A stretch of DNA of 36,033 nt, from the IMG/VR virus record IMGVR_UViG_3300020814_000003; one strand, 5' to 3'. Both the position numbers and the translations under genes were made by a program. The notes beneath the pieces were generated by a model that made no database searches, was not told the DNA's origin, and worked only from the letters and a program-made list of their open reading frames with translations. Source of the DNA: a virus. Shown here piece by piece: positions 1-36,033 of this stretch; positions within the stretch are counted from its first letter, which is position 1, and every line of letters begins with the position of its first letter.

Positions 1-141
1 CCCGCCCCTGGAGGCGGATGCCCAGGCAAGGAAGGCGGTGCTGCTCGCCCCCACCGGCGGTGTTGAGCGCCGGGGGAGCGGGCCGATCATGCGCACCCGG
101 TTCACAGCCTGGTGCTACGGGGAGAGCCTGGTGGAGGCGGG
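1..141. repeat. Terminal direct repeat, left copy. It is identical to 35893-36033, which marks a circular or circularly permuted genome assembled as a linear contig.
   Basis: Read by eye: cccgcccctggaggcggatgcc...ctggtggaggcggg occurs at both ends, with 141/141 matches. Confidence 0.95.
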
Positions 142-11933: not shown

Positions 11934-12061
11934 CCAAAATCGCAAAGAATCTATGCCGCCGTTTGTGTAGTGGTTTCCTGTTCCGATTTTAAGCCCGCAC
12001 ACTCCCCCATCGGGGGATATTGCAGGCTACGGCGTGCACCCCGTATCCTTTGCATAACGCT

Positions 12062-13345
12062 ATGCGCGAGCAGCTGTACGCCTGTGAACCGACCTTCCTC
12101 GTCGCCTACCTGGAGCGGCTGGAAAACGCCTCCGAGGAGGAGGTGCGGCTCGCGGCGCAGATGTTCGGCGAATCGCCCGAGGACGACGACGACCATCTGG
12201 AGGAGGAGACCGACGAGGAGGGCAACGTCCGCGTGCGGATCGAGGGCCCGCTGTCCATGTCCGGACCCTCGCCGCTCGCGCGGCTGTTCGGGGGCCAGGG
12301 CACCAGCTACCAGCAGATCGTGGCCTGGGCCAAGGACTGCCGCCGCCGCCGGCCCCGCAGCGTGGCCCTGGAGTTCAACTCACCGGGCGGCGAGGTGCCC
12401 GGCGCCGATCTCGCCTACCAGGCGATCCGCGCGCTGGCCGCCGAGGTCCCGACGCGGGCCGAGGTCAGCGGCATGTGCGCCTCCGCCGCCTACTGGCTGG
12501 CCGTCGCCTGCCCCGACATCCGCGCTCTGTCGCCGGCTGCCGAGGTCGGGTCCATCGGCGTGAAGATCGTGGCCATCGACGACAGCGGACTCCGCGACGC
12601 CCTGGGCATCAAGCGCGTGACCATCGTCAGCCGCAACGCCCCGCGCAAGGACGACAACCCCAGCACGAAGGCCGGCCGCGACGTGCTCCAGGAGCGCGCC
12701 GACGCCATGGAGGCGGTGTTCATCCAGCGCATCGCCGAGGGCCGGAAGACCAGCACCGAGGACGTGGAGGCCAACTACGGCCGCGGCGCCCTGCTCATCG
12801 CCAGCGAGGCCCGCCGCGTCGGCATGATCGACGCGATCCAGGACAGTATCCCCGCCAGCCGCCAAGCCGCGAGTCTCGCGGCGCAGGCTGCCGGCTTGCT
12901 CGTAGCCCAGAACCAGACGCCGGCTCCCCCGGCCAAGAAGGAGAAGCCCATGACGCTGAAAGAACTGCTGGCCAGCGATCCGCTCGCCCGCTCCGAGTAC
13001 GAGAAGGCCCTGGCCGAGGCCCGTGCCGAGGGCGTGAAGGCCGTGGAGGCGCGGATCACCGCCGCCAAGCCCTACCTGGCCCTGCAGGTCGTGCAACGCG
13101 CCCTGGAGCGCCAGGCCGGCAACACCGACAGCCTGAAGACCTACGCCGGCCCCTTCTTCCTCCGGCAGAGCTGCCCGCGGACCCAGCACCTGGAGGGCGA
13201 AGGGAAGACCGTCGGCGATCGCCACCTGCGCGAGCAGCGGCGGATCCTCGAGCGCCTTTGTCACATAAGTCGTTGCCAGTGCAGTAATTGTGACATTGCG
13301 CCGCCTCGACATTGCTTCGAGCCTGGCGTGCGTTGTTTCGTCTAA
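12062..13345 (+). CDS. S49/ClpP-fold serine peptidase fused to a scaffold-like coiled-coil tail (lambda gpC/Nu3-type). It lies outside the head module.
   Basis: Motifs are EFNSPGGEVPGADLAYQAIRAL and SGMCASAAYWLAVACP. The C-terminal part is MTLKELLASDPLARSEYEKALAEARAEGVKAVEARI. The start is uncertain (ATG 12062 or TTG 12020). The last ~30 codons are low-GC3 and antisense to the RHH ORF. Confidence 0.7.
   Translation: MREQLYACEPTFLVAYLERLENASEEEVRLAAQMFGESPEDDDDHLEEETDEEGNVRVRIEGPLSMSGPSPLARLFGGQGTSYQQIVAWAKDCRRRRPRSVALEFNSPGGEVPGADLAYQAIRALAAEVPTRAEVSGMCASAAYWLAVACPDIRALSPAAEVGSIGVKIVAIDDSGLRDALGIKRVTIVSRNAPRKDDNPSTKAGRDVLQERADAMEAVFIQRIAEGRKTSTEDVEANYGRGALLIASEARRVGMIDAIQDSIPASRQAASLAAQAAGLLVAQNQTPAPPAKKEKPMTLKELLASDPLARSEYEKALAEARAEGVKAVEARITAAKPYLALQVVQRALERQAGNTDSLKTYAGPFFLRQSCPRTQHLEGEGKTVGDRHLREQRRILERLCHISRCQCSNCDIAPPRHCFEPGVRCFV
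12949..13345 (+). CDS. Possible nested in-frame scaffold-like product (Nu3-style internal start).
   Basis: An internal AAGGAG plus 6-nt spacer plus ATG lies in the same frame (…KKEKP-MTLKELLASDPL…). This is an analogy to the lambda C/Nu3 nesting only. Confidence 0.3.
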
Positions 13346-13387
13346 TCGGACTTTCACCTCTTTCGGCTTCTTTCTTTTCGCGACCAT
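13255..13387 (-). CDS. Ribbon-helix-helix (Arc/Mnt/CopG-type) DNA-binding protein. Only the RHH-domain part is credible; the ORF has no stop until 12380.
   Basis: MVAKRKKPKEVKVRLDETTHARLEAMSRRRNVTITALATTYVTKALE, with an RBS AAGGAAGG and a promoter at 13411-13439. Downstream the frame runs on as an antisense shadow of the S49 gene. Confidence 0.5.
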
Positions 13388-13447: not shown

Positions 13448-13476
13448 TTGACAAGGCGCGCCGAGTGGTGTAGTAT
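13448..13476 (+). promoter_or_regulatory. Rightward sigma70-type promoter: -35 TTGACA, 17-nt spacer, -10 TAGTAT.
   Basis: The sequence is TTGACAaggcgcgccgagtggtgTAGTAT. It sits back-to-back with the leftward promoter, ~30 nt upstream of the plus RHH gene. Confidence 0.55.
13466..13472. promoter_or_regulatory. Operator-like repeat TGGTGTA overlapping the rightward -10.
   Basis: This is the third copy of the TGGTGTA motif in the 120-nt divergent control region. Confidence 0.35.
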
Positions 13477-13507: not shown

Positions 13508-13657
13508 GTGAAGGACGTCAAGATCAGGCTAAACGAAAGGCAGTACGAATTGCTGCGCAAGAAAGCTGCCGACGAGCTCCGCTCTATCAACAAGCAGGTC
13601 ACCGTTTTCGTTCTGTCTGGGTTGCAGGGAGACGAAAGGCGGCGACTGAAAAAGTGA
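13508..13657 (+). CDS. Ribbon-helix-helix (Arc/CopG-type) small regulator.
   Basis: 49 aa from the GTG: VKDVKIRLNERQYELLRKKAADELRSINKQVTVFVLSGLQGDERRRLKK. GAGAGGGG lies upstream. It is below the 60-aa cut-off of the ORF track, and its stop overlaps the next start (GTGA). Confidence 0.6.
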   Translation: MKDVKIRLNERQYELLRKKAADELRSINKQVTVFVLSGLQGDERRRLKK

Positions 13658-13872
13658 TCACTGCCATTTTGACGCCAGAACAGTCCGCCCTGATTGCTGC
13701 CGCGCGCGAGCGCTACGGCGAGGACATCACGCCCTGCAGGAACAGGGCGCGCCTTGAGGATTGCTTCATGGACCACGGTAGGTACGGCTACTTCCTCTAC
13801 TTCAACACGCCTGATGGTAGCACGCATGTAGTCTCGGCCAAAACAAAGGACGAACTGAATGCCCTACGCTGA
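13654..13872 (+). CDS. Hypothetical protein downstream of the RHH gene, at the antirepressor position by analogy to P22 immI.
   Basis: 72 aa, MITAILTPEQSALIAAARERYGEDITPCRNRARLEDCF..., translationally coupled to the RHH gene. Confidence 0.5.
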   Translation: MITAILTPEQSALIAAARERYGEDITPCRNRARLEDCFMDHGRYGYFLYFNTPDGSTHVVSAKTKDELNALR

Positions 13873-14035
13873 TCCCCAAAAAGCACGCGAAAGCGTAGGC
13901 GGGCCGGTGATCGTGGAATCGTGGCGTCCAGTTATCTTTCGGGGCCTTCCAACGATCGAGCGGGCACTTCGGGTTGCGAGGAGGCTTCATGCAAATATCG
14001 CTTTCCTGAAATCGAAGCCATCACGAAGAAAGTAG
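13859..14035 (+). CDS. Possible small ORF (58 aa).
   Basis: MPYADPQKARESVGGPVIVESWRPVIFRGLPTIERALRVARRLHANIAFLKSKPSRRK. It overlaps the previous stop by 14 nt. Local GC is too neutral for GC3 to discriminate. Confidence 0.3.
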   Translation: MPYADPQKARESVGGPVIVESWRPVIFRGLPTIERALRVARRLHANIAFLKSKPSRRK

Positions 14036-14197
14036 AATCTATCGGGATCGAAGCTCGATCTGTTGGAATGGCTGCTGCAGCGCGAACGAAGAGCTGGAGC
14101 CGCAGCGGGCCAGGAAGGAGGCCAAGAAGGCATCGTGAGGGTTGGGAGTGGACAGGCGAGCTATAAGGCGGCTGGCCTGCCCGCTCTCCGTTCGGGC

Positions 14198-14247
14198 CCC
14201 GGGGGAGGCCTTGCTGGCACCCGTCCAGCTCCCCCGGGCTTTTCTTC
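14198..14247 (+). terminator. Intrinsic terminator/attenuator hairpin immediately upstream of the recombination operon RBS.
   Basis: A 10-bp stem pairs CCCGGGGGAG (14198-14207) with CTCCCCCGGG (14229-14238). There is an inner 4-bp extension, and CTTTTCTTC follows. The AAGGAGAG RBS starts at 14252. Confidence 0.5.
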
Positions 14248-14263
14248 ATCCAAGGAGAGCGGG

Positions 14264-15427
14264 ATGAACGGAAACGAAAACCTACCTGCGGTCGTCCAGA
14301 CCGCGATCAAGGAGCTGCGGGTCAACCTGGACCAGGTCAACTTGATGCTTCCCACGCAGACCTTTGGCGAGGTCCTGGGCATGTATGACCGCGTCACCAT
14401 CGAGGTGGTGACGATCAACACCGCCAAGGATTCCGGAGAAGTCTATGAGATCTCCGGGAAAAAGAGCTTAGGCAAGATACCCCTGGAGAAGATCGGCGCC
14501 GCGGTGGGCATCATCTGGGACCCGGTGAACACCACGATCCTGGAATCCGGACCAACCAAGAGCCGGGCCAAGGCCACCGGAGCGCTGCGCAAGCCGAACG
14601 GCGAGTTCATCGTTCTGAGCGAGGAGAAGACCGTCGACCTGGAGGCCATCGAGGAAGAGCAGCGCATGGCGAAGGAGGACGAAGCCAAGCGCGGGAAAAT
14701 CATCGAGGTCAACGGCAAGATCCAGTGGGAGACCACGCAGACCGGGAAATCCTACCCGAAGCGCGAGTCCTGGTCGAGCGATCAGGAGAAGGCGGACTGG
14801 ATCGATCGCGAGGTCCGCAAGGCCATGATCTCCTATCGGAAGTTCAAGGACGAGCGGGCCATGACCGGCGCGAAGGAACGCTGCATCCGGGCCCTGCTGG
14901 CCTTGAAGACCAGCTACACCGACGCCGAGCTGGCCAAGCCCTTCGCCTTCCCGCGGGTCCTCCCCGACGTCAACAAGATGCTCGCCGACCCGTCGGCCCG
15001 CCAAGCTGCCATCCAGCGCATGACCGGAGCCGTCAGCTCCATCTTCGGCCCCGGGGCGGAGCGGGATGTCACCCCGCGGCCGGCCATCAGTGCGGAGGTC
15101 CTGGAGATCCCCGCGGACCAGGTCCGGGAGCAGCCGCCGGGGGCCGCGGAGCCCGTGGACGACGACCCCTTCGAGGAGAACGCCGCCGCCGGGAAGCAGC
15201 CGGCCGCGGCGCAGCCGGAAGCCGACCCGAAGGAAGAAGCCCGCCACACGCTGCAGGAGTGGCTGCTGTCGGAGATCCTCAAGCCCTCCGCAAAGCAGCT
15301 GATCCGGGAGCTGCTCGGCAACGAGGGCGCTACCCTGGAGGCCCTGCAGGATATGATCCGGCGCTGCAACGAGTACCAGCAGCGGAAGAAGACGCCGGCG
15401 GCCGCGGCCGCGGGAGGTGCGAAGTGA
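14264..15427 (+). CDS. Putative single-strand annealing / recombination mediator protein with an acidic Pro/Ala-rich C-terminal tail.
   Basis: 387 aa, with AAGGAGAG upstream. It lies directly upstream of, and is coupled (GTGA) to, the Mre11-Rad50 fusion. The segment ...KFKDERAMTGAKERCIRALLALK... is reminiscent of SSAP families. This is weak recognition only. Confidence 0.35.
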   Translation: MNGNENLPAVVQTAIKELRVNLDQVNLMLPTQTFGEVLGMYDRVTIEVVTINTAKDSGEVYEISGKKSLGKIPLEKIGAAVGIIWDPVNTTILESGPTKSRAKATGALRKPNGEFIVLSEEKTVDLEAIEEEQRMAKEDEAKRGKIIEVNGKIQWETTQTGKSYPKRESWSSDQEKADWIDREVRKAMISYRKFKDERAMTGAKERCIRALLALKTSYTDAELAKPFAFPRVLPDVNKMLADPSARQAAIQRMTGAVSSIFGPGAERDVTPRPAISAEVLEIPADQVREQPPGAAEPVDDDPFEENAAAGKQPAAAQPEADPKEEARHTLQEWLLSEILKPSAKQLIRELLGNEGATLEALQDMIRRCNEYQQRKKTPAAAAAGGAK

Positions 15428-18400
15428 ACGCGCTGCGCATCCTGCACACCGCCGACGTGCACTTCGAGCGCGAGCACCAGGAGCAGGCGCTGGCCTCCCT
15501 GGAGGCGCTCTACGCCCACGGCCGCGATGACGGCGTGGACCTGTGGGCGATCGCCGGGGACCTGTTCGGCCGCGCCGTGGCCAACACGGCCGCTGCCGGC
15601 TTCCCCCGGCTGGTAGCGATCCTCCAGCGCATGCTGGATCTGGCGCCAATCGTCGCGGTCCGGGGCACCCCCACCCACGACATCGACGGGTGCTATGAGG
15701 CCCTGCAGGAGATCAAGGCCAGGTTCCGCTTCACCCTACTCGGCCCGAGGGAATCCAGTTTTCTTGGTCCGGACGGAGATGTTGGCGGAGATGCCGGCGC
15801 CCGTCTGCTGATCCTTGGCTGCCCTGAACCGTCGAAGGAGTGGTTTCTCCGGGATAAAGAGGGCCTGGGCCGCGACGAGGCAACCCAGGCCGTCAAGGAT
15901 GGAATGCGGCAGCTGCTGCTGGGCTTGGGGGCCATCCGCAAGCAGTACGCCGCGCTTCCTTGCCTCATGGTCTACCACGGGGCGGTGGAGGGCGCAAGCC
16001 TGTGCAACGGCCAGACTCTGCGCCCTGGGGAGCTGGCCATCGGGCGCGAGGACCTGACGCTGGTGGGCGCGGACTACTACGCGCTGGGGCACATCCACCT
16101 GGCGCAGCAGGTCGGGGGACTGCAGGCCTACTATCCCGGCAGCGCCTACCCGGTGAACTGGGGCGAGGTCGACCAGAAGGGCTTCAACCAGGTCGAAATC
16201 TGGCCGAGCGGTTCCCCTCTCATGATCATGCGCATCCCCTTCCCACACCCGCCGCGGCGGAAGCTGGTCAAGGAGCTCACCGAGGACATCCTGGATGAGG
16301 AAGTCCGCGGCTTCCAGGTCTGGGTGGTCCACCGCGTGCCCAAGGACGTGCCCTTCAACAACGACACGGTATTGCCCCTGCTGATGGAGGCGGGCGCGTT
16401 GGAGGGCTCCCGGGCGACGGTCGAGATCATCCCCACGGAGACGGTGCGCGCCGGCGCGATCGCGGAGGCCCGCGGGCTGCCCGACAAGCTGGCGGTGTAC
16501 GCCCTGAACAGCGGGGAGGCTCTGACCGAGCCGCAGCTGATGAAGGCTGCCTTCCTGGAGTCCGAGGTCCGGGCCCTGGGCCGGGCCTCGGAGGGCCTGC
16601 ACGTGCGCATCGACCGGCTGCGGCTGCGCGGGGCGATCGGCGTGTGGAAGGGCCTGGGGCTGGACGAGATCGACCTGGACCTGACCGCCTACGACGCCGG
16701 CCTGATCGCCCTGGTGGGCGCCAACGGCCGCGGGAAGACGACCCTGATCGAGAACATGCACCCCTACCCGGAGATGCTCACTCGCGCCGGCACGCTGCAG
16801 GAGCACTTTCGGCTGAAGGATTCCATCCGGGAGCTGTACTTCACCGACGAGCGCACCGGGGCGCAGTACCGGGCCCTGATCCAGATCGATGGGGCCAACG
16901 CCAGCGGCCGGGCCGAGTACCACCTGTTCCGCGAGGGGCAGCCGCTCACCAATGGCCGCAAGGCGGACTACGAGCAGGCCATCGAGCGGTTGTTCGGCAG
17001 CCTGTCCCTGTTCGTGCGTAGCGCGTTCGTCAGCCAGAAGCCGCCAAAGGGCCACCCGGACCTGACCGACGCCACAAAGGGAGAGAAGAAGGCGCTGTTC
17101 CGCGAGCTGGCCGGCCTGGACTACTTGCAAGCCTACAGCGAGGCCGCCCGGGAGAAGGCCAAGGTCCTGGAGGCGGAGACGGAACGGGACGCCGGGCGCA
17201 TCGAAGCGATGCAGGGCCAGCTCGCCGGCCGGGAGAGCTTGGCGGCAGACCTGGCGCTACGCCGGCAGGAGCTGCAGGCCAAGAGCACGGAGCTGCTGGG
17301 CCTGGAATCCCGGGGCAAGAGCGCCACGGCCAGCGTCGAGGAGCTGCGCGGCAAGGTGGAGCGCAACCGGGAGATCGAGCAGCGCATCCGGGAAAGCGAG
17401 AACCGGCAGGAGAAGCTGCGCGCGGAGGTCGACCACGTCGAGGCCGCGCGCACGACCTACCAGGCCGCCCTGGCCGGCCGGCCGGCGGCCGAGGCCGCCC
17501 TGGCCGAGATCGAGGCCCTGAAGGCCGAGGAGGGAGATCTCCGTGGAAAGCAAACCGAGGTCCTCCAGCAGCGAGAGCAGCTGCAGCGAGACTACCTGGA
17601 CAAGAACCGAGCTGCTGAGGATGCAGTGCGCAAGATCGAGGCAGCCCAGGCGGCGCTGGACCGCGAGGTGGCGCTCCTGGATCAGCAAAAGAAGGCGGCA
17701 ATCGCTCGGGTAGACGAGCTGGAGGTGGAGCTCTCCACCACGATCACCTGCCCGAAGTGCGAGCACAAGTTCCATCCGGACGCGGACACGGTGAGGGCCA
17801 AGATCGCGGCGCAGCAGGAGATCGCCTTCGAGGCGGACAAGCAGATCGAGGCGAAGCAGCTCGCGATCGAGGCCTGTAAGGCGGCGGTAGCGGAAATCAT
17901 CATCCCGGTGGAGCCGGAGCTGCCCACCTTCGACGACAGCCGGCTGCGGGAGATCGCCGCGAAGCTGAAGGACTGCGGCGAGCACATCCAGCGCAGCCTA
18001 GTCCGCGCGGCTGATGAGGCCGCGGTGCACATCCAGGAGGGCGAGCGGCGCAAGGCGCAAATCACGCAGGAGCTGGCCGAGCTGGGGACGCAGCACGACG
18101 AACTCGCCGGAAAGCTGCTGGGCCCGGAGCTGGAGGAGGCCTTCGCGGCGGGGCAGAAGGAGCTGGCCGACCTGGAGGCGGAGTACCGTACCTGCCGGGA
18201 CCTGGTAAAGACGCTGGAGGCCGTCGTGAGATCTCTGAAGATCCAGCTCGCGGAGCTCGACCAGGTCGCCCAGGAGCTGGAGACGCTGCAGCAGCAGGTA
18301 GAGGGCAAGCAGCAGGACGCCGCGGACTGGCGCTACCTGGAGCGGGCCACGGGCCCCGACGGGATCCAGGCGCTGGAGCTGGACGCCATGGGCCCGGGTA

Positions 18401-18873
18401 TCGCTGAGGTCGCCAACCGCCTGCTGTCCGCGGCTTACGGCAGCCGCTTCTCCGTGGAGTTTCGGACCACCCGGATCGGCGGGGCCGGCTCGAAGAAGAG
18501 GCAAATCGAGGATTTCCAGATCTGGATCCTGGACAGCGAGCACGGCAGCGAGCAGCTCCTGGAGACGCTCTCCGGCGGGGAGGCAGTCTGGATCAAGCGC
18601 GCCATCTATGACGCCTTCGGCATCATCCGCGACCGCAGCACGGGGCAGCGCTTCCTGACCTGCTTCCAGGATGAGGCAGACGGGGCCCTGGACCCGGAGG
18701 CCCGGTTGGCCTACTTCCGCATGCTGGAGGCAGCGCACCTGGAGGCCGGCCGCCGGCACACCATCGTCATCACCCACAGCCCGGAGGCGCAGGAGCAGAT
18801 CCCGCAGCGCATCCGCATGGAATACCTGGCGGCCGCGGCCGTGTCCGACGTCGAAGTCGAGGCAGCGAGATAG
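15424..18873 (+). CDS. Single-polypeptide Mre11/SbcD-type nuclease fused to a Rad50/SbcC-type ABC ATPase.
   Basis: 1149 aa from GTG 15424. Phosphoesterase motifs are LHTADVH, AGDLF, RGTPTHD, MVYHG and LGHIH. The ATPase part has Walker A GANGRGKTT (16717-16743), FVSQ, a long coiled coil with the CPKC hook (17749-17760), LSGGE, FQDEADGALD and ITHS. The track ORF is open from 14725, but that stretch overlaps the upstream gene. Confidence 0.85.
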   Translation: MNALRILHTADVHFEREHQEQALASLEALYAHGRDDGVDLWAIAGDLFGRAVANTAAAGFPRLVAILQRMLDLAPIVAVRGTPTHDIDGCYEALQEIKARFRFTLLGPRESSFLGPDGDVGGDAGARLLILGCPEPSKEWFLRDKEGLGRDEATQAVKDGMRQLLLGLGAIRKQYAALPCLMVYHGAVEGASLCNGQTLRPGELAIGREDLTLVGADYYALGHIHLAQQVGGLQAYYPGSAYPVNWGEVDQKGFNQVEIWPSGSPLMIMRIPFPHPPRRKLVKELTEDILDEEVRGFQVWVVHRVPKDVPFNNDTVLPLLMEAGALEGSRATVEIIPTETVRAGAIAEARGLPDKLAVYALNSGEALTEPQLMKAAFLESEVRALGRASEGLHVRIDRLRLRGAIGVWKGLGLDEIDLDLTAYDAGLIALVGANGRGKTTLIENMHPYPEMLTRAGTLQEHFRLKDSIRELYFTDERTGAQYRALIQIDGANASGRAEYHLFREGQPLTNGRKADYEQAIERLFGSLSLFVRSAFVSQKPPKGHPDLTDATKGEKKALFRELAGLDYLQAYSEAAREKAKVLEAETERDAGRIEAMQGQLAGRESLAADLALRRQELQAKSTELLGLESRGKSATASVEELRGKVERNREIEQRIRESENRQEKLRAEVDHVEAARTTYQAALAGRPAAEAALAEIEALKAEEGDLRGKQTEVLQQREQLQRDYLDKNRAAEDAVRKIEAAQAALDREVALLDQQKKAAIARVDELEVELSTTITCPKCEHKFHPDADTVRAKIAAQQEIAFEADKQIEAKQLAIEACKAAVAEIIIPVEPELPTFDDSRLREIAAKLKDCGEHIQRSLVRAADEAAVHIQEGERRKAQITQELAELGTQHDELAGKLLGPELEEAFAAGQKELADLEAEYRTCRDLVKTLEAVVRSLKIQLAELDQVAQELETLQQQVEGKQQDAADWRYLERATGPDGIQALELDAMGPGIAEVANRLLSAAYGSRFSVEFRTTRIGGAGSKKRQIEDFQIWILDSEHGSEQLLETLSGGEAVWIKRAIYDAFGIIRDRSTGQRFLTCFQDEADGALDPEARLAYFRMLEAAHLEAGRRHTIVITHSPEAQEQIPQRIRMEYLAAAAVSDVEVEAAR

Positions 18874-19102
18874 GAGGGGGCGATCTTGACCCATGAGATC
18901 GTGTTCGGCGTGCTGAGCCAGGAGTCGCTCATCGCGTCGATCTGCGGCGCATCCGTTACCGGAGGGAGCCGTGCTTCCGAGCGCGGGGATCGCGTCGCGA
19001 GAGCTACTACGTCGATGCCGGCGGAGGGGCGCGGGGTTCTGGCCCCCGGTCAGCTCTTCGTGGCGCGACGAGCATTCCCTCCTGCCGGTCCCGTGGTGTC
19101 GA

Positions 19103-19124
19103 CGCCGCGGGGCCGGCGCTTTTT
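19103..19124 (+). terminator. Weak GC hairpin followed by T5, upstream of the tRNA-like element.
   Basis: CGCCG (19103-19107) pairs with CGGCG (19114-19118), followed by c-TTTTT (19120-19124). The stem is short. Confidence 0.3.
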
Positions 19125-19125
19125 C

Positions 19126-19220
19126 GGGGCCGTGGCGAAACTGGCAGACGCGGGGCAGGCCCCCTGCCGGCGGTTGAAGACGCCTGCCGTCGGCGTGCAG
19201 GTTCGAGTCCTGCCGGCCCC
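19126..19220 (+). tRNA. tRNA-like element with a class II/Leu-type body but a non-canonical, expanded anticodon region.
   Basis: The acceptor pairs GGGGCCG (19126-32) with CGGCCCC (19214-20). The D arm TGGCGAAACTGGCAGACGC is typical of tRNA-Leu. The T arm is perfect: GCAGG-TTCGAGT-CCTGC (19197-19213). The central stem GGCAGGC (19154-60)/GCCTGCC (19182-88) encloses 21 nt instead of 7. No CCA is encoded. Confidence 0.5.
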
Positions 19221-19235
19221 TTCCTGGAGGTGCAC

Positions 19236-21389: not shown

Positions 21390-21472
21390 TGATGCTGGCA
21401 GACGATCTCTTTGACGGGTCGTGGGATTGCTGGATCTACGAAGCCCAGTGCTGGCCAGTGGGGGACTTCTGA
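21389..21472 (+). CDS. 27-codon micro-ORF bridging two genes by overlapping stop/start codons.
   Basis: MMLADDLFDGSWDCWIYEAQCWPVGDF. Its ATG overlaps the upstream TGA (21387-89), and its TGA (21470-72) overlaps the ParB-like ATG. Confidence 0.3.
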   Translation: MMLADDLFDGSWDCWIYEAQCWPVGDF

Positions 21473-22221
21473 TGAACGTCCGCGATATCCCCCTGGTGAA
21501 GATCTTCATCACCAAGAACGTGCGCTTTGAAACCGATGAGGAGCTGGGCGAGCTGATCGGCAGCGTGGAGCGCTTCACCCAGCTGCAGCCCATCGGCGTG
21601 TTCCCGCGCGGGGAACGCGGCTACGAGCTGGTCTGGGGTCACCGCCGCTTCCGCGCGGCCCAGATGGCCGGAGAGTACAGCATCGCCGCGCGGATCCTGG
21701 ACGACATCCCGGAACGCGACATCCCGCTGATCAAGCTGCAGGAGAACATGGTCCGCAAGCAGCTGTCCGCGGAGGAGATCGTGAAGGCCGCTGATGAGCT
21801 CAAGCACCAGCGCCCCGGGCTCACCGATCGGCTGGTCGACCAGATGCTGGGCAAGCGCCCGGGCTACCTGAGCTATCAGCGCAGCCTGCTGCAGACATAC
21901 GAGTGGCTGGCCACGCAGGGCCTCAAGAAGAAGCACCTGGAGGCGCTCAATGCGGAGGAGCTGTTTGCGCTGAAGGCCAAGCTGGAGAAGCGCCAGGCCC
22001 AGCCGCGCCGCAGCACCTACCACCGTGGCGGCCGCACGCCCAGCAACGGCTTTGAGATCATCGTCACGCGGGGCCCGAACATCATCGTGGTCTGCAGCTG
22101 CAAGACCACGAAGGCCCGCGTGGTGCGCTACCTGAAGCGTCTACTGGCCCCGGCGGAGGGGAAGAAAGGAGGTGCGCGGGAAGGAAACGGCAAGGGTCCT
22201 CGCAGCAAGGGCCCGCCATAA
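21472..22221 (+). CDS. ParB N-terminal-domain (ParB/Srx) protein.
   Basis: 249 aa: QPIGVFPRGERGYELVWGHRRFRAAQMAG, which contains the GxRR box, with a basic C-terminus. The track start 21421 lacks support. Confidence 0.65.
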   Translation: MNVRDIPLVKIFITKNVRFETDEELGELIGSVERFTQLQPIGVFPRGERGYELVWGHRRFRAAQMAGEYSIAARILDDIPERDIPLIKLQENMVRKQLSAEEIVKAADELKHQRPGLTDRLVDQMLGKRPGYLSYQRSLLQTYEWLATQGLKKKHLEALNAEELFALKAKLEKRQAQPRRSTYHRGGRTPSNGFEIIVTRGPNIIVVCSCKTTKARVVRYLKRLLAPAEGKKGGAREGNGKGPRSKGPP

Positions 22222-22298: not shown

Positions 22299-22679
22299 TT
22301 GACGGAGAACTGGAAGCCCATCGACGGATACTCCTACGAGGTCAGCGACCAGGGACGCGTGCGCCGGATCCTGCCGGACGGCGGCCGGCGCCTGGTAGCC
22401 CAGGAGCTGGTCAAGAAGCGCAACGGAGAATACCTGCGCGTGGATCTGTGGCGCTGGAATCGCCGCCGGCATTTCTCCGTCCACCGCCTGGTCGCCGCGG
22501 CCTTCCTTCCACCACCGGAGCCCGGGCAGCGCGAGGTCAACCACTGGGACACCAACACGCTCCATAACGCCGCCAGCAACCTGGAGTGGTCCAGCCGGCG
22601 CGAAAATGAAGCGCACAAGCGCTACATGCGCGCCTTTCGGGGGCTGCCTGCCGTTGCTGCCGCCGGAGGTTCGGACTGA
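22299..22679 (+). CDS. HNH homing-type endonuclease (NUMOD4-like N-terminus plus HNH_3-like core).
   Basis: TTG start after GGGGAGGGGAG. Motifs are WKPIDGYSYEVSDQGRVRR and VNHWDTNTLHNAASNLEWSSRRENEAH. Confidence 0.7.
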   Translation: MTENWKPIDGYSYEVSDQGRVRRILPDGGRRLVAQELVKKRNGEYLRVDLWRWNRRRHFSVHRLVAAAFLPPPEPGQREVNHWDTNTLHNAASNLEWSSRRENEAHKRYMRAFRGLPAVAAAGGSD

Positions 22680-30818: not shown

Positions 30819-31700
30819 ATGGAACCGCAGGTGAAGATCTACCGGCTCAAGGATCTGGCGATCAACGAGGCGGGCACCTTCCGGGCCGTATTCGCCACCC
30901 TGAACGTAGAGGACTCACAGGGCGACGTGACCCTGCCCGGGGCGTTCGGCGAGCAGAAGGTCTTGATCAGCCAGTACAACCACGGCTCCTGGGACCGTGG
31001 CGTGGCGGCTCTCCCGATCGGCGTGGGCCGGATCTTCGAACAGGGCAACGACGCCCTCATCGAGGGCGAGTTCGACATGGACGATCCGGCCGCGGTGGCC
31101 ACCTACAAGAAGATGCGCTACATCCACGCCAAGGGCCGCGTGCAGGAGTTCAGCTACGCGCTTCCGGAAGTGGAGTCGTTCACCCGGGATGAGAACGGGC
31201 ACCGGGTCCGGGTCCTGAAGAAGATCAGGGTGCCGGAAGTGTCCCCCGTGCTCATGGGCGCCGGCGTCAACACGCGCCTGCTGGACATCAAGAGCGGCAA
31301 GACCGTGACACCTGGCGAGAGCGAGACCGAGCAGGAGTTCGTCAGCCGGTGCATCGCCTTCTACGTGGACGAGGGGCGGGACGCGGACCAGGCGGCGGCT
31401 ATCTGTCACCGCATCTGGCGGGAGGCAAAAGCAGGGAAACCGCAGCAGCTCAAGATGCTCGACCATGTGGGGATCGTGATCTCCAAGGTGGCCGAGCTCC
31501 TGGAGCGGTTGAAGGACTTAGGGGCTCTGCGGCAAGCAGAGGGTGGAACCATTTCTGAAGGCACGTTGAGCAAAGCACAGGAGCTGTCGGAAGTCCTGAC
31601 GAAGGCAGCTGCCGAGCTGGCGGGCCTCCGCGCGGAGCATGACTCGGCATTCGCCGAGTACGTGCGCTTCCAGCGCATCATCGCGGAAAGGAGAGCATAA
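30819..31700 (+). CDS. HK97-family prohead protease (S78/U35) with a C-terminal helical extension.
   Basis: 293 aa, with CAGGAGG upstream. The N-terminus FRAVFATLNVEDSQGDVTLPGAFG is typical of the family. It lies between the portal and capsid genes. Confidence 0.7.
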   Translation: MEPQVKIYRLKDLAINEAGTFRAVFATLNVEDSQGDVTLPGAFGEQKVLISQYNHGSWDRGVAALPIGVGRIFEQGNDALIEGEFDMDDPAAVATYKKMRYIHAKGRVQEFSYALPEVESFTRDENGHRVRVLKKIRVPEVSPVLMGAGVNTRLLDIKSGKTVTPGESETEQEFVSRCIAFYVDEGRDADQAAAICHRIWREAKAGKPQQLKMLDHVGIVISKVAELLERLKDLGALRQAEGGTISEGTLSKAQELSEVLTKAAAELAGLRAEHDSAFAEYVRFQRIIAERRA

Positions 31701-35804: not shown

Positions 35805-36033
35805 TCGACCCGCTGGCCGCGCTGCGCCAGGTCCTGCTGGCGGATCGGGCGATCCAGGACCTATGCGAGAGCCGGGTCTACGTCGGCGAGCTCCCGCCCC
35901 TGGAGGCGGATGCCCAGGCAAGGAAGGCGGTGCTGCTCGCCCCCACCGGCGGTGTTGAGCGCCGGGGGAGCGGGCCGATCATGCGCACCCGGTTCACAGC
36001 CTGGTGCTACGGGGAGAGCCTGGTGGAGGCGGG
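35801..36033 (+). CDS. 5' part of the neck/tail-completion gene that wraps the contig junction and continues at 142..319.
   Basis: The ATG overlaps the previous TGA (ATGA). The frame runs into the terminal repeat and continues in frame in the left copy. Confidence 0.6.
   Translation, partial: MIDPLAALRQVLLADRAIQDLCESRVYVGELPPLEADAQARKAVLLAPTGGVERRGSGPIMRTRFTAWCYGESLVEA
35893..36033. repeat. Terminal direct repeat, right copy of 1-141.
   Basis: Exact 141-nt identity with the window start. The reading frame of the CDS starting at 35801 continues seamlessly into 142..319. Confidence 0.95.

Follow-up and report, generated by a model that had tools for sequence, protein, structure and literature searches.

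A single-chain Mre11-Rad50 (SbcD-SbcC) homologue and its conserved upstream partner gene in the complete genome of an uncultivated tailed phage

The gene described here lies on IMG/VR virus record IMGVR_UViG_3300020814_000003, a stretch of 36,033 nucleotides that was analysed over its full length and is called the window below. It occupies positions 15424-18873 of the plus strand, and its stop-free translation of 1149 codons plus a stop gives a protein of 1149 amino acids (aa) in which an Mre11/SbcD-type nuclease comes first and a Rad50/SbcC-type ATPase second, in a single conserved chain. The GTG start codon at 15424 has GGAGGTG just 5′ of it and shares bases with the TGA of the preceding gene (GTGA), an uncharacterised gene that we refer to as the partner gene. 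The same 1149-aa product was also predicted independently by a Joint Genome Institute (JGI) gene call, on another contig. An earlier note on this DNA, made from the letters alone, had described one uninterrupted open reading frame (ORF) with two complete enzyme cores, and translation, profile searches, structure prediction and conservation all agree with that description.

The nuclease half comprises aa 1-335 (15424-16428, plus strand), a phosphoesterase domain of the Mre11/SbcD type with its capping domain, delimited by Pfam, TIGR00619, hhalign, Foldseek and conservation. The profile check on this part that the earlier note had called for came out in favour of an Mre11-type domain by every method used: Pfam Metallophos matches the N-terminal part, TIGR00619 (sbcd) aligns to aa 4-250 over model positions 1-248 of 252, Escherichia coli SbcD residues 1-314 align by hhalign to aa 5-309 with a probability of 98.6%, and a PDB profile search with a 51-homologue profile found Thermotoga maritima Mre11 at E 3e-20 and E. 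coli SbcD at E 1e-15. Foldseek comparison with the last two proteins gave target TM-scores of 0.64-0.73, and both Foldseek and the hhalign alignment to SbcD 1-314 place the Mre11-type capping domain after the phosphoesterase fold. Conservation figures here and below refer to 51 aligned homologues with 39-69% identity. Motifs I (DxH, D11/H13), II (GD, D46), IV (H185) and V (GHxH, H223/H225) of the metal site are all present; D11, H13, D46, H85, D86, H185 and H225 are invariant, and H223 is found in 50 of the 51.

Motif III is the variant element of the nuclease half. In the canonical motif, GNH[DE], the Asn is a metal ligand and the His is the catalytic residue. The fusion protein has G81-T-P-T-H85-D86 instead; where T. 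maritima Mre11 and E. coli SbcD have the Asn, the alignments show T84, together with a two-residue insertion. That position is Thr in 45 homologues and Ser in 6, while T82 is invariant. At the loci whose alignment covered motif III, namely 46 loci on viral contigs and one contig of a Clostridia metagenome-assembled genome (MAG), the residue is Thr, Ser, Ala or Gly (Ala or Gly in two), and T82 is almost always kept. Elsewhere the motif reads GTYSHE in relatives encoded as split genes on plasmids and GTGNHD in a fusion protein of Clostridium kluyveri, both of which are compared with the phage protein below. These sequences indicate that the longer motif III loop is the older feature and that the Asn was lost within the lineage of the fusion protein. 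The five phosphoesterase motifs quoted in the earlier note are therefore all present with conserved key residues, but one of them, RGTPTHD, is a non-canonical motif III.

The ATPase half follows the complete Rad50/SbcC architecture that the earlier note had read from the letters, and both motif conservation and profile matches uphold it. All of its parts are on the plus strand. The N-lobe (aa 393-565, 16600-17118; hhalign, phrog_77 and conservation) carries the Walker A motif G432-x-N-G-x-G-K438-T-T and the Q-loop residue Q538. An ascending coiled-coil arm of about 205 residues (aa 566-770, 17119-17733), predicted by AlphaFold2 as helices 566-600, 603-684 and 686-770, leads to the zinc hook C776-P-K-C779 (aa 771-786, 17734-17781; conservation and PDB profile search), and the descending arm (aa 787-975, 17782-18348; predicted helices 787-824, 839-895 and 903-975) has a conserved proline-rich break near aa 825-838, where P828 is nearly invariant. 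The C-lobe (aa 976-1149 and the stop codon, 18349-18873) contains the signature S1050-G-G-E, Walker B D1083/E1084, the D-loop residue D1086 and the H-loop residue H1118. Six ATPase motifs are thus divided between two lobes, which are joined by a long antiparallel coiled coil with an apical CxxC hook. K438, S1050, G1052, D1083, E1084, D1086 and H1118 are invariant and Q538 is present in 50 of 51 homologues; in the hook, C776 and C779 are invariant and P777 is again found in 50 of 51. The PHROG family of SbcC-like proteins, phrog_77, covers aa 412-1133 (E 5e-40), the C-terminal part of Pfam SMC_N matches the C-lobe, and the PDB profile search found E. coli SbcC (E 2e-17) as well as the Rad50 hook fragments 1l8d and 6zff. 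By hhalign, SbcC residues 18-205 align to aa 416-591. In the AlphaFold2 model of the fusion protein, which has a mean predicted local distance difference test (pLDDT) score of 82.6, the two helical arms converge at C776-P-K-C779, and the top Foldseek match is Chaetomium thermophilum Rad50 (E 5e-18).

Between the two halves, aa 336-392 (16429-16599, plus strand) are predicted to form three helices (341-348, 352-363 and 369-385 in the AlphaFold2 secondary structure) and a short linker, and they stand in the place of the helix-loop-helix by which Mre11 binds Rad50. No sequence alignment with SbcD or Mre11 extends into the predicted helices at aa 341-385; from the model and the position they are a putative Rad50-binding helix-loop-helix. 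The region is delimited by the model and by invariant columns, among which are E339, T340 and R342. These residues belong to an invariant E-T-x-R at aa 339-342 (16438-16449; consensus IPTETVRAGEI) between the capping domain and the predicted helices, for which no alignable counterpart was found in SbcD or Mre11. The GC content at third codon positions (GC3) in the frame of the ORF stays at 0.90-0.98 in each 60-codon window from aa 301 to aa 480, the domain junction included, and so there is no sign of a frame shift there.

The single chain is widely conserved. A homology search returned 468 proteins at E < 1e-5, and among the best 120 of them nearly all have a query coverage of 98-100% and a length of 1110-1197 aa. 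More than 100 full-length homologues with 39-69% identity, from independent samples, keep the two enzymes in one chain, and conserved in-frame residues flank the junction on both sides in the aligned homologues. An identical 1149-aa protein is encoded on three contigs of 20-50 kb. In IMG/VR, relatives are encoded at 52 loci, 46 of which are full length; 43 of these 46 carry the whole match in one ORF. Among cellular genomes sampled at one per species, the fused form was present on one contig only, the Clostridia MAG contig already mentioned, which is probably viral; the remaining full-length matches were ordinary pairs of sbcD and sbcC. Two homologues, P0061 (1506 aa) and P0090 (1470 aa), contain an intein (PF14890), which in P0061 lies precisely within the Walker A loop (GVNG|C...HN|SGKTT). 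Inteins typically occupy functionally essential motifs. The other three full-length viral loci (L106, L131 and L132) have the match split over two or three ORFs, which could reflect real fission, an inserted element or sequencing error; the split at L106, into 392, 174 and 909 aa, is reminiscent of the arrangement on plasmids.

The partner gene (14264-15427, plus strand) encodes 387 aa and belongs to phrog_13782 (E 8e-32), which has no annotated function; its stop codon overlaps the start of the fusion gene. The translational coupling claimed in the earlier note stands, and the coupled gene is a conserved neighbour, which lies directly 5′ of the fusion gene at 27 of the 52 viral loci and has a homologue just 5′ of the C. 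kluyveri fusion gene (positions 13525-14442 of plasmid pCKL555A, NC_009466.1; hhalign probability 99.75%, E 3e-27). Its family is very large, with 1878 cluster representatives (50% identity) at E <= 1e-3, and one member is fused to RecU. The same note had also called the upstream gene similar to a single-strand annealing protein, and for this the evidence is weak. The AlphaFold2 model (pLDDT 85) has strands at 91-95, 99-109 and 115-125 followed by a helix at 126-143, and its best fold match in the PDB is human RAD52 at E 0.05, with the RAD52 chains at E 0.05-0.2 by Foldseek. Neither single sequences nor whole alignments (55 and 93 members) matched any Pfam or NCBIfam model, PDB sequence profile searches gave no match, PHROGs returned only the unannotated phrog_13782, and the comparison with lambda Bet, in which hhalign aligned one helix at a probability of 1.3%, was essentially negative. 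We tentatively regard a Rad52-fold annealing protein as a reasonable hypothesis for the partner, suggested by the fold match.

The genome that carries these two genes is that of a tailed phage. The first and last 141 bases of the window (1-141 and 35893-36033) are identical, and because of this exact terminal overlap the contig is circularly closed and the phage genome complete at 35,892 bp. Genes were recognised for a tape measure protein, a tail fibre, the terminase large subunit, a portal protein, a prohead protease, the major capsid protein and an M23-type lysin. Among the window ORFs scanned, none was recognised as a gene for a polymerase, primase or helicase. We also considered a hairpin-ended genome, of the telomere-phage kind, as a rationale for the enzyme, and dropped the idea: the termini are a 141-bp direct overlap with no inverted terminal repeat, and the ORFs scanned included no recognisable protelomerase gene.

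The fusion gene is the last of a run of genes on the same strand. A consensus scan, which found two promoter-like sites where 0.6 were expected, places one of them upstream of this run (TTGACA-17-TAGTAT, 10 of 12 consensus positions; 13448-13476, plus strand). At the head of the run is a small ORF of 72 aa (13654-13872, plus strand), which was called as a gene on the JGI contig and has no Pfam match. About 210 nt 3′ of the fusion gene, the consensus scan found a strong terminator-like hairpin with a 16-bp stem, 12 G-C pairs and a T-run (19083-19118, plus strand); the functions of this element and of the promoter-like site are putative. Directly after the hairpin, ARAGORN predicts an unusually long tRNA-Gly of 96 nt with anticodon CCC (19126-19221, plus strand). 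Several neighbouring genes deserve a brief mention. An S49/ClpP-like peptidase (12020-13345, plus strand; phrog_53 'head maturation protease', Pfam Peptidase_S49) is well separated from the head module and sits just upstream of the recombination genes, and the last ~90 residues of its ORF look non-protein-like; a second protease, the prohead protease of phrog_80 (30819-31700, plus strand), is located between the portal and capsid genes. The minus-strand ORF at 12380-13387, whose N-terminus MVAKRKKPKEVKVRLDETTHARLEAMSRRRNVTITALATTYVTKAL resembles a ribbon-helix-helix regulator, has a minus-strand promoter-like site just upstream (13439-13411) and continues stop-free antisense through the S49 peptidase gene. 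Downstream of the module are a gene for a ParB N-terminal-domain protein (21421-22221, plus strand) and a homing-endonuclease-like gene with NUMOD4 and HNH_3 domains (22299-22679, plus strand); several related viral loci likewise have the ParB-like gene close to the fusion gene.

Our results suggest, with a probability that we put at about 0.75, that the gene encodes a genuine and functional single-chain Mre11-Rad50 (SbcD-SbcC) homologue that processes DNA ends in a complete tailed-phage genome. The identities of the two domains, the phage context and the conservation of the motifs, of the single ORF and of the gene pair were observed directly; we infer the oligomeric state, the activities, the substrate and the biological role. 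By analogy with E. coli SbcCD and T4 gp46/gp47, two chains would form a homodimer held together by dimerised Mre11-type nucleases, by Rad50 heads engaged through ATP and, at the tips of the ~200-residue arms, by the zinc hook. ATP binding would clamp this dimer on a DNA end or hairpin, and the metal-dependent phosphoesterase domain would then cut the clamped DNA. The fusion itself would amount to a short tether, of ~7 residues past the predicted helical region, in place of a non-covalent assembly, and such a covalent link would fix a 1:1 stoichiometry and make the whole machine transferable as one gene. The most likely role in the phage, again by analogy, is to open or resect DNA ends so that recombination, recombination-dependent replication or concatemer formation can proceed, and the fusion protein probably acts with the product of the translationally coupled upstream gene, a candidate annealing protein. 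The more specific proposal, a self-contained two-gene module made up of a divergent Rad52-fold annealing protein and a single-chain Mre11-Rad50 with Thr or Ser in place of the motif III Asn, is a possibility that we hold tentatively, with the odds somewhat against it. Several points weigh against the picture drawn here. Motif III is without the canonical Asn ligand, and the metal site and the nuclease chemistry may accordingly differ from those of Mre11/SbcD. The candidate annealing function of the partner has behind it a Foldseek match at E 0.05, which is weak, and a single helix aligned by hhalign. Our literature search turned up no biochemical or genetic study of any natural fusion.

Other explanations can be weighed against the same observations. 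One is an assembly or sequencing artefact, in which a lost stop codon or a frameshift would have joined adjacent sbcD and sbcC genes, which normally overlap slightly. With an overlap of 4 bases, as in E. coli, one error could be enough to fuse the two, and the split arrangement does exist at the three viral loci and in the plasmid relatives. Yet the error would have had to yield an identical product on three contigs and one chain in more than 100 homologues from independent samples, down to 39% identity, as well as a single ORF at 43 of 46 viral loci, and it would have to be reconciled with in-frame conservation on both sides of the junction and a continuous GC3. As far as sequence comparison allows, an artefact is effectively refuted. 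A defence or conflict system of SMC (structural maintenance of chromosomes) type, similar to Lamassu, Wadjet or RloC and not homologous to Mre11-Rad50, is just as improbable. Foldseek does list Lamassu LmuB, JetC, MukB and Smc5/6 as well, which is to be expected because all of these share the SMC/Rad50 head and coiled coil; Rad50 is nevertheless the best match (E 5e-18, versus 5e-11 for Lamassu), a CPxC zinc hook is present, the nuclease is of the Mre11/SbcD type with a capping domain, and the sequence profile specifically matches SbcC, SbcD and Mre11.

Two further alternatives concern what the protein does and are less improbable, although we consider both unlikely. In one, the Rad50 part is active and phosphoesterase catalysis is altered or reduced, so that the protein would chiefly clamp, tether or sense DNA ends in an ATP-dependent way, or would be a nuclease whose metal requirement or specificity is different. 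The family-wide G-T-x-[T/S/A/G]-H-D in place of GNHD would be explained in this way, the more so as the C. kluyveri relative retains GTGNHD. On the other hand, the remaining ligands and the catalytic His (D11, H13, D46, H85, H185, H223 and H225) are invariant or nearly so over a wide divergence, from which we argue for a working active site, and the invariant T82 may compensate for the missing Asn. In the other, to which we give slightly less weight, the enzyme acts against the host: it would break down host DNA, or clear phage DNA of host defence proteins that bind or block its ends. Mre11-Rad50 enzymes cut protein-blocked ends (PMC6265447), T4 gp46/47 has been implicated in several DNA transactions (PMC3175470), and the phage ORFs scanned include no recognisable replication genes by which the enzyme could be linked to a replication module. 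The tight and conserved coupling to a candidate annealing protein, however, fits recombination better, as do the recombination-type genes in relatives, and one member of the partner family is fused to RecU.

Mre11-Rad50 has been studied intensively as a two-chain machine, and crystallographers have linked the chains artificially. A natural single chain that is compact (1149 aa), widely conserved and equipped with arms of ~200 residues could therefore be a convenient model enzyme. The conserved gene pair, whose other product is uncharacterised, points to a simple recombination module in the phage that is of interest for recombineering. If both proteins are active as proposed, they would constitute a minimal, portable system for end resection and annealing; the fusion protein would offer structural and single-molecule studies an Mre11-Rad50 that is tethered by nature, and its nuclease would hold an unusual variant of the two-metal phosphoesterase site. 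What is new here is modest: a large phage-restricted lineage of a known fusion class, a conserved uncharacterised partner gene and the Asn-less motif III. The class has been known since 2011, and no new principle is added to it.

Natural Mre11/Rad50 fusions were first described, according to the authors, by Yoshida, Claverie and Ogata in 2011 (Virol J 8:427, PMC3175470). They gave as instances Mimivirus R555, Bacillus phage 0305phi8-36, C. kluyveri plasmids, a Deferribacter megaplasmid and several eukaryotes, and reported metagenomic homologues to be abundant and probably derived from phages. In their argument, the T. maritima complex poses no steric obstacle to such a fusion, and the fusions, which they found to be polyphyletic, arose repeatedly in viruses (PMC3175470). 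The novelty of a single-chain fusion that the earlier note implied does not stand, since fusions have been described, are common in viruses and include an example with full-length homology to the present protein. One ORF here runs from Mre11 to Rad50, and the family profile aligns over positions 4-1157 to residues 1-1249 of the C. kluyveri fusion (hhalign probability 100%, E 1e-40, 1081 aligned columns). The latter, encoded on pCKL555A of C. kluyveri DSM 555 (WP_011930361.1, 1258 aa), is likewise one chain with an Mre11-like N-terminal and a Rad50-like C-terminal part, has likewise a helical region and a short linker between the domains, and likewise belongs to a non-canonical lineage of mobile elements. 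It differs in that identity is only ~20% and in that its motif III keeps the Asn (GTGNHD), whereas the phage family has GTP[T/S]HD. The phage family resides in uncultivated phage genomes of ~35-46 kb and is absent from the 2011 account, in which the partner gene is likewise unreported (PMC3175470). We had entertained an origin of the phage fusion independent of all described fusions, an idea that came from the split plasmid relatives found by BLAST, and dropped it as unproven once homology to the C. kluyveri fusion, and to the partner gene beside it, had come to light. The plasmid pCKL555A also encodes a tape measure protein, a major tail protein, a head-tail connector, a holin and a GH25 lysin and, judged by these genes, looks like a phage-plasmid.

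Structure comparison reaches further. The best matches in BFVD are single-chain viral proteins of 1000-1400 residues which align over more than 1200 columns and both halves (E 1e-37 to 1e-31). They come from Yasminevirus, Tupanvirus, Tetraselmis virus, the Tenacibaculum phages PTm1 and pT24 and Listeria phage LMTA-57, and thus comprise phage proteins and, at 1200-1400 aa, giant-virus proteins of mimivirid type, which are putative counterparts of Mimivirus R555. The Listeria phage has one gene product annotated 'recombination exonuclease' that takes in both the nuclease domain and the Rad50 N-lobe. These proteins differ from the phage family in that identity in the structural alignments is 12-15%, most are longer (1300-1400 aa) and there is no detectable similarity at BLAST level, and their fusion events may be independent of that of the phage family. 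A tblastn search against cultured phages found short, distant SbcC-like matches only, the best being Leptospira phage LE1 with 30% identity over 25% of the query.

Outside the phage family, the nearest relatives at BLAST level are split genes on Burkholderiaceae megaplasmids (Cupriavidus, Burkholderia and Paraburkholderia). On a Cupriavidus oxalaticus plasmid (NZ_CP038639.1, 4986-9453), a 487-aa metallophosphatase, a 171-aa ORF and a 774-aa SMC-family ATPase follow one another (WP_135707596.1, WP_135707599.1); the split ATPase has 27% identity over aa 398-1137 of the fusion protein (E 2e-51) and the split phosphoesterase aligns to aa 2-380. These relatives share the Asn-less motif III (GTYSHE), but their hook is not CPxC, and the gene upstream of the Cupriavidus pair is unrelated to the partner gene. 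Split relatives were also seen on more than 80 other Burkholderiaceae plasmids, which include conjugative megaplasmids. A different combination is found in RloC, another natural single chain, in which a Rad50-like zinc-hook ABC ATPase is fused to an anticodon nuclease (cited in PMC7824862). By description, the nuclease of RloC is unrelated, tRNA-targeting and C-terminal, and the protein is of the bacterial defence type.

E. coli SbcCD (SbcD of 400 aa and SbcC of 1048 aa; PDB 6s6v, 6s85 and 7yzo) shares with the fusion protein both folds, nuclease motifs I, II, IV and V, the ATPase motifs and a zinc-hooked antiparallel coiled coil, and its gene order sbcD-sbcC is the order of the domains in the fusion. 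In contrast to the phage protein, it consists of two chains, has the canonical GNHD, and serves a chromosomal housekeeping function in the cleavage of hairpins and palindromes; its arms can be estimated at ~300 or more residues from the length of SbcC (1048 aa), compared with ~200 in the fusion protein. T4 gp47/gp46 and T5 D12/D13 are phage end-processing complexes for recombination-dependent replication (PMC3175470). By description they differ from the fusion protein in having separate chains and, in the case of gp46, much shorter coiled coils, and T4 and T5 are themselves set apart as large lytic phages with their own replisome and RecA-type recombinase.

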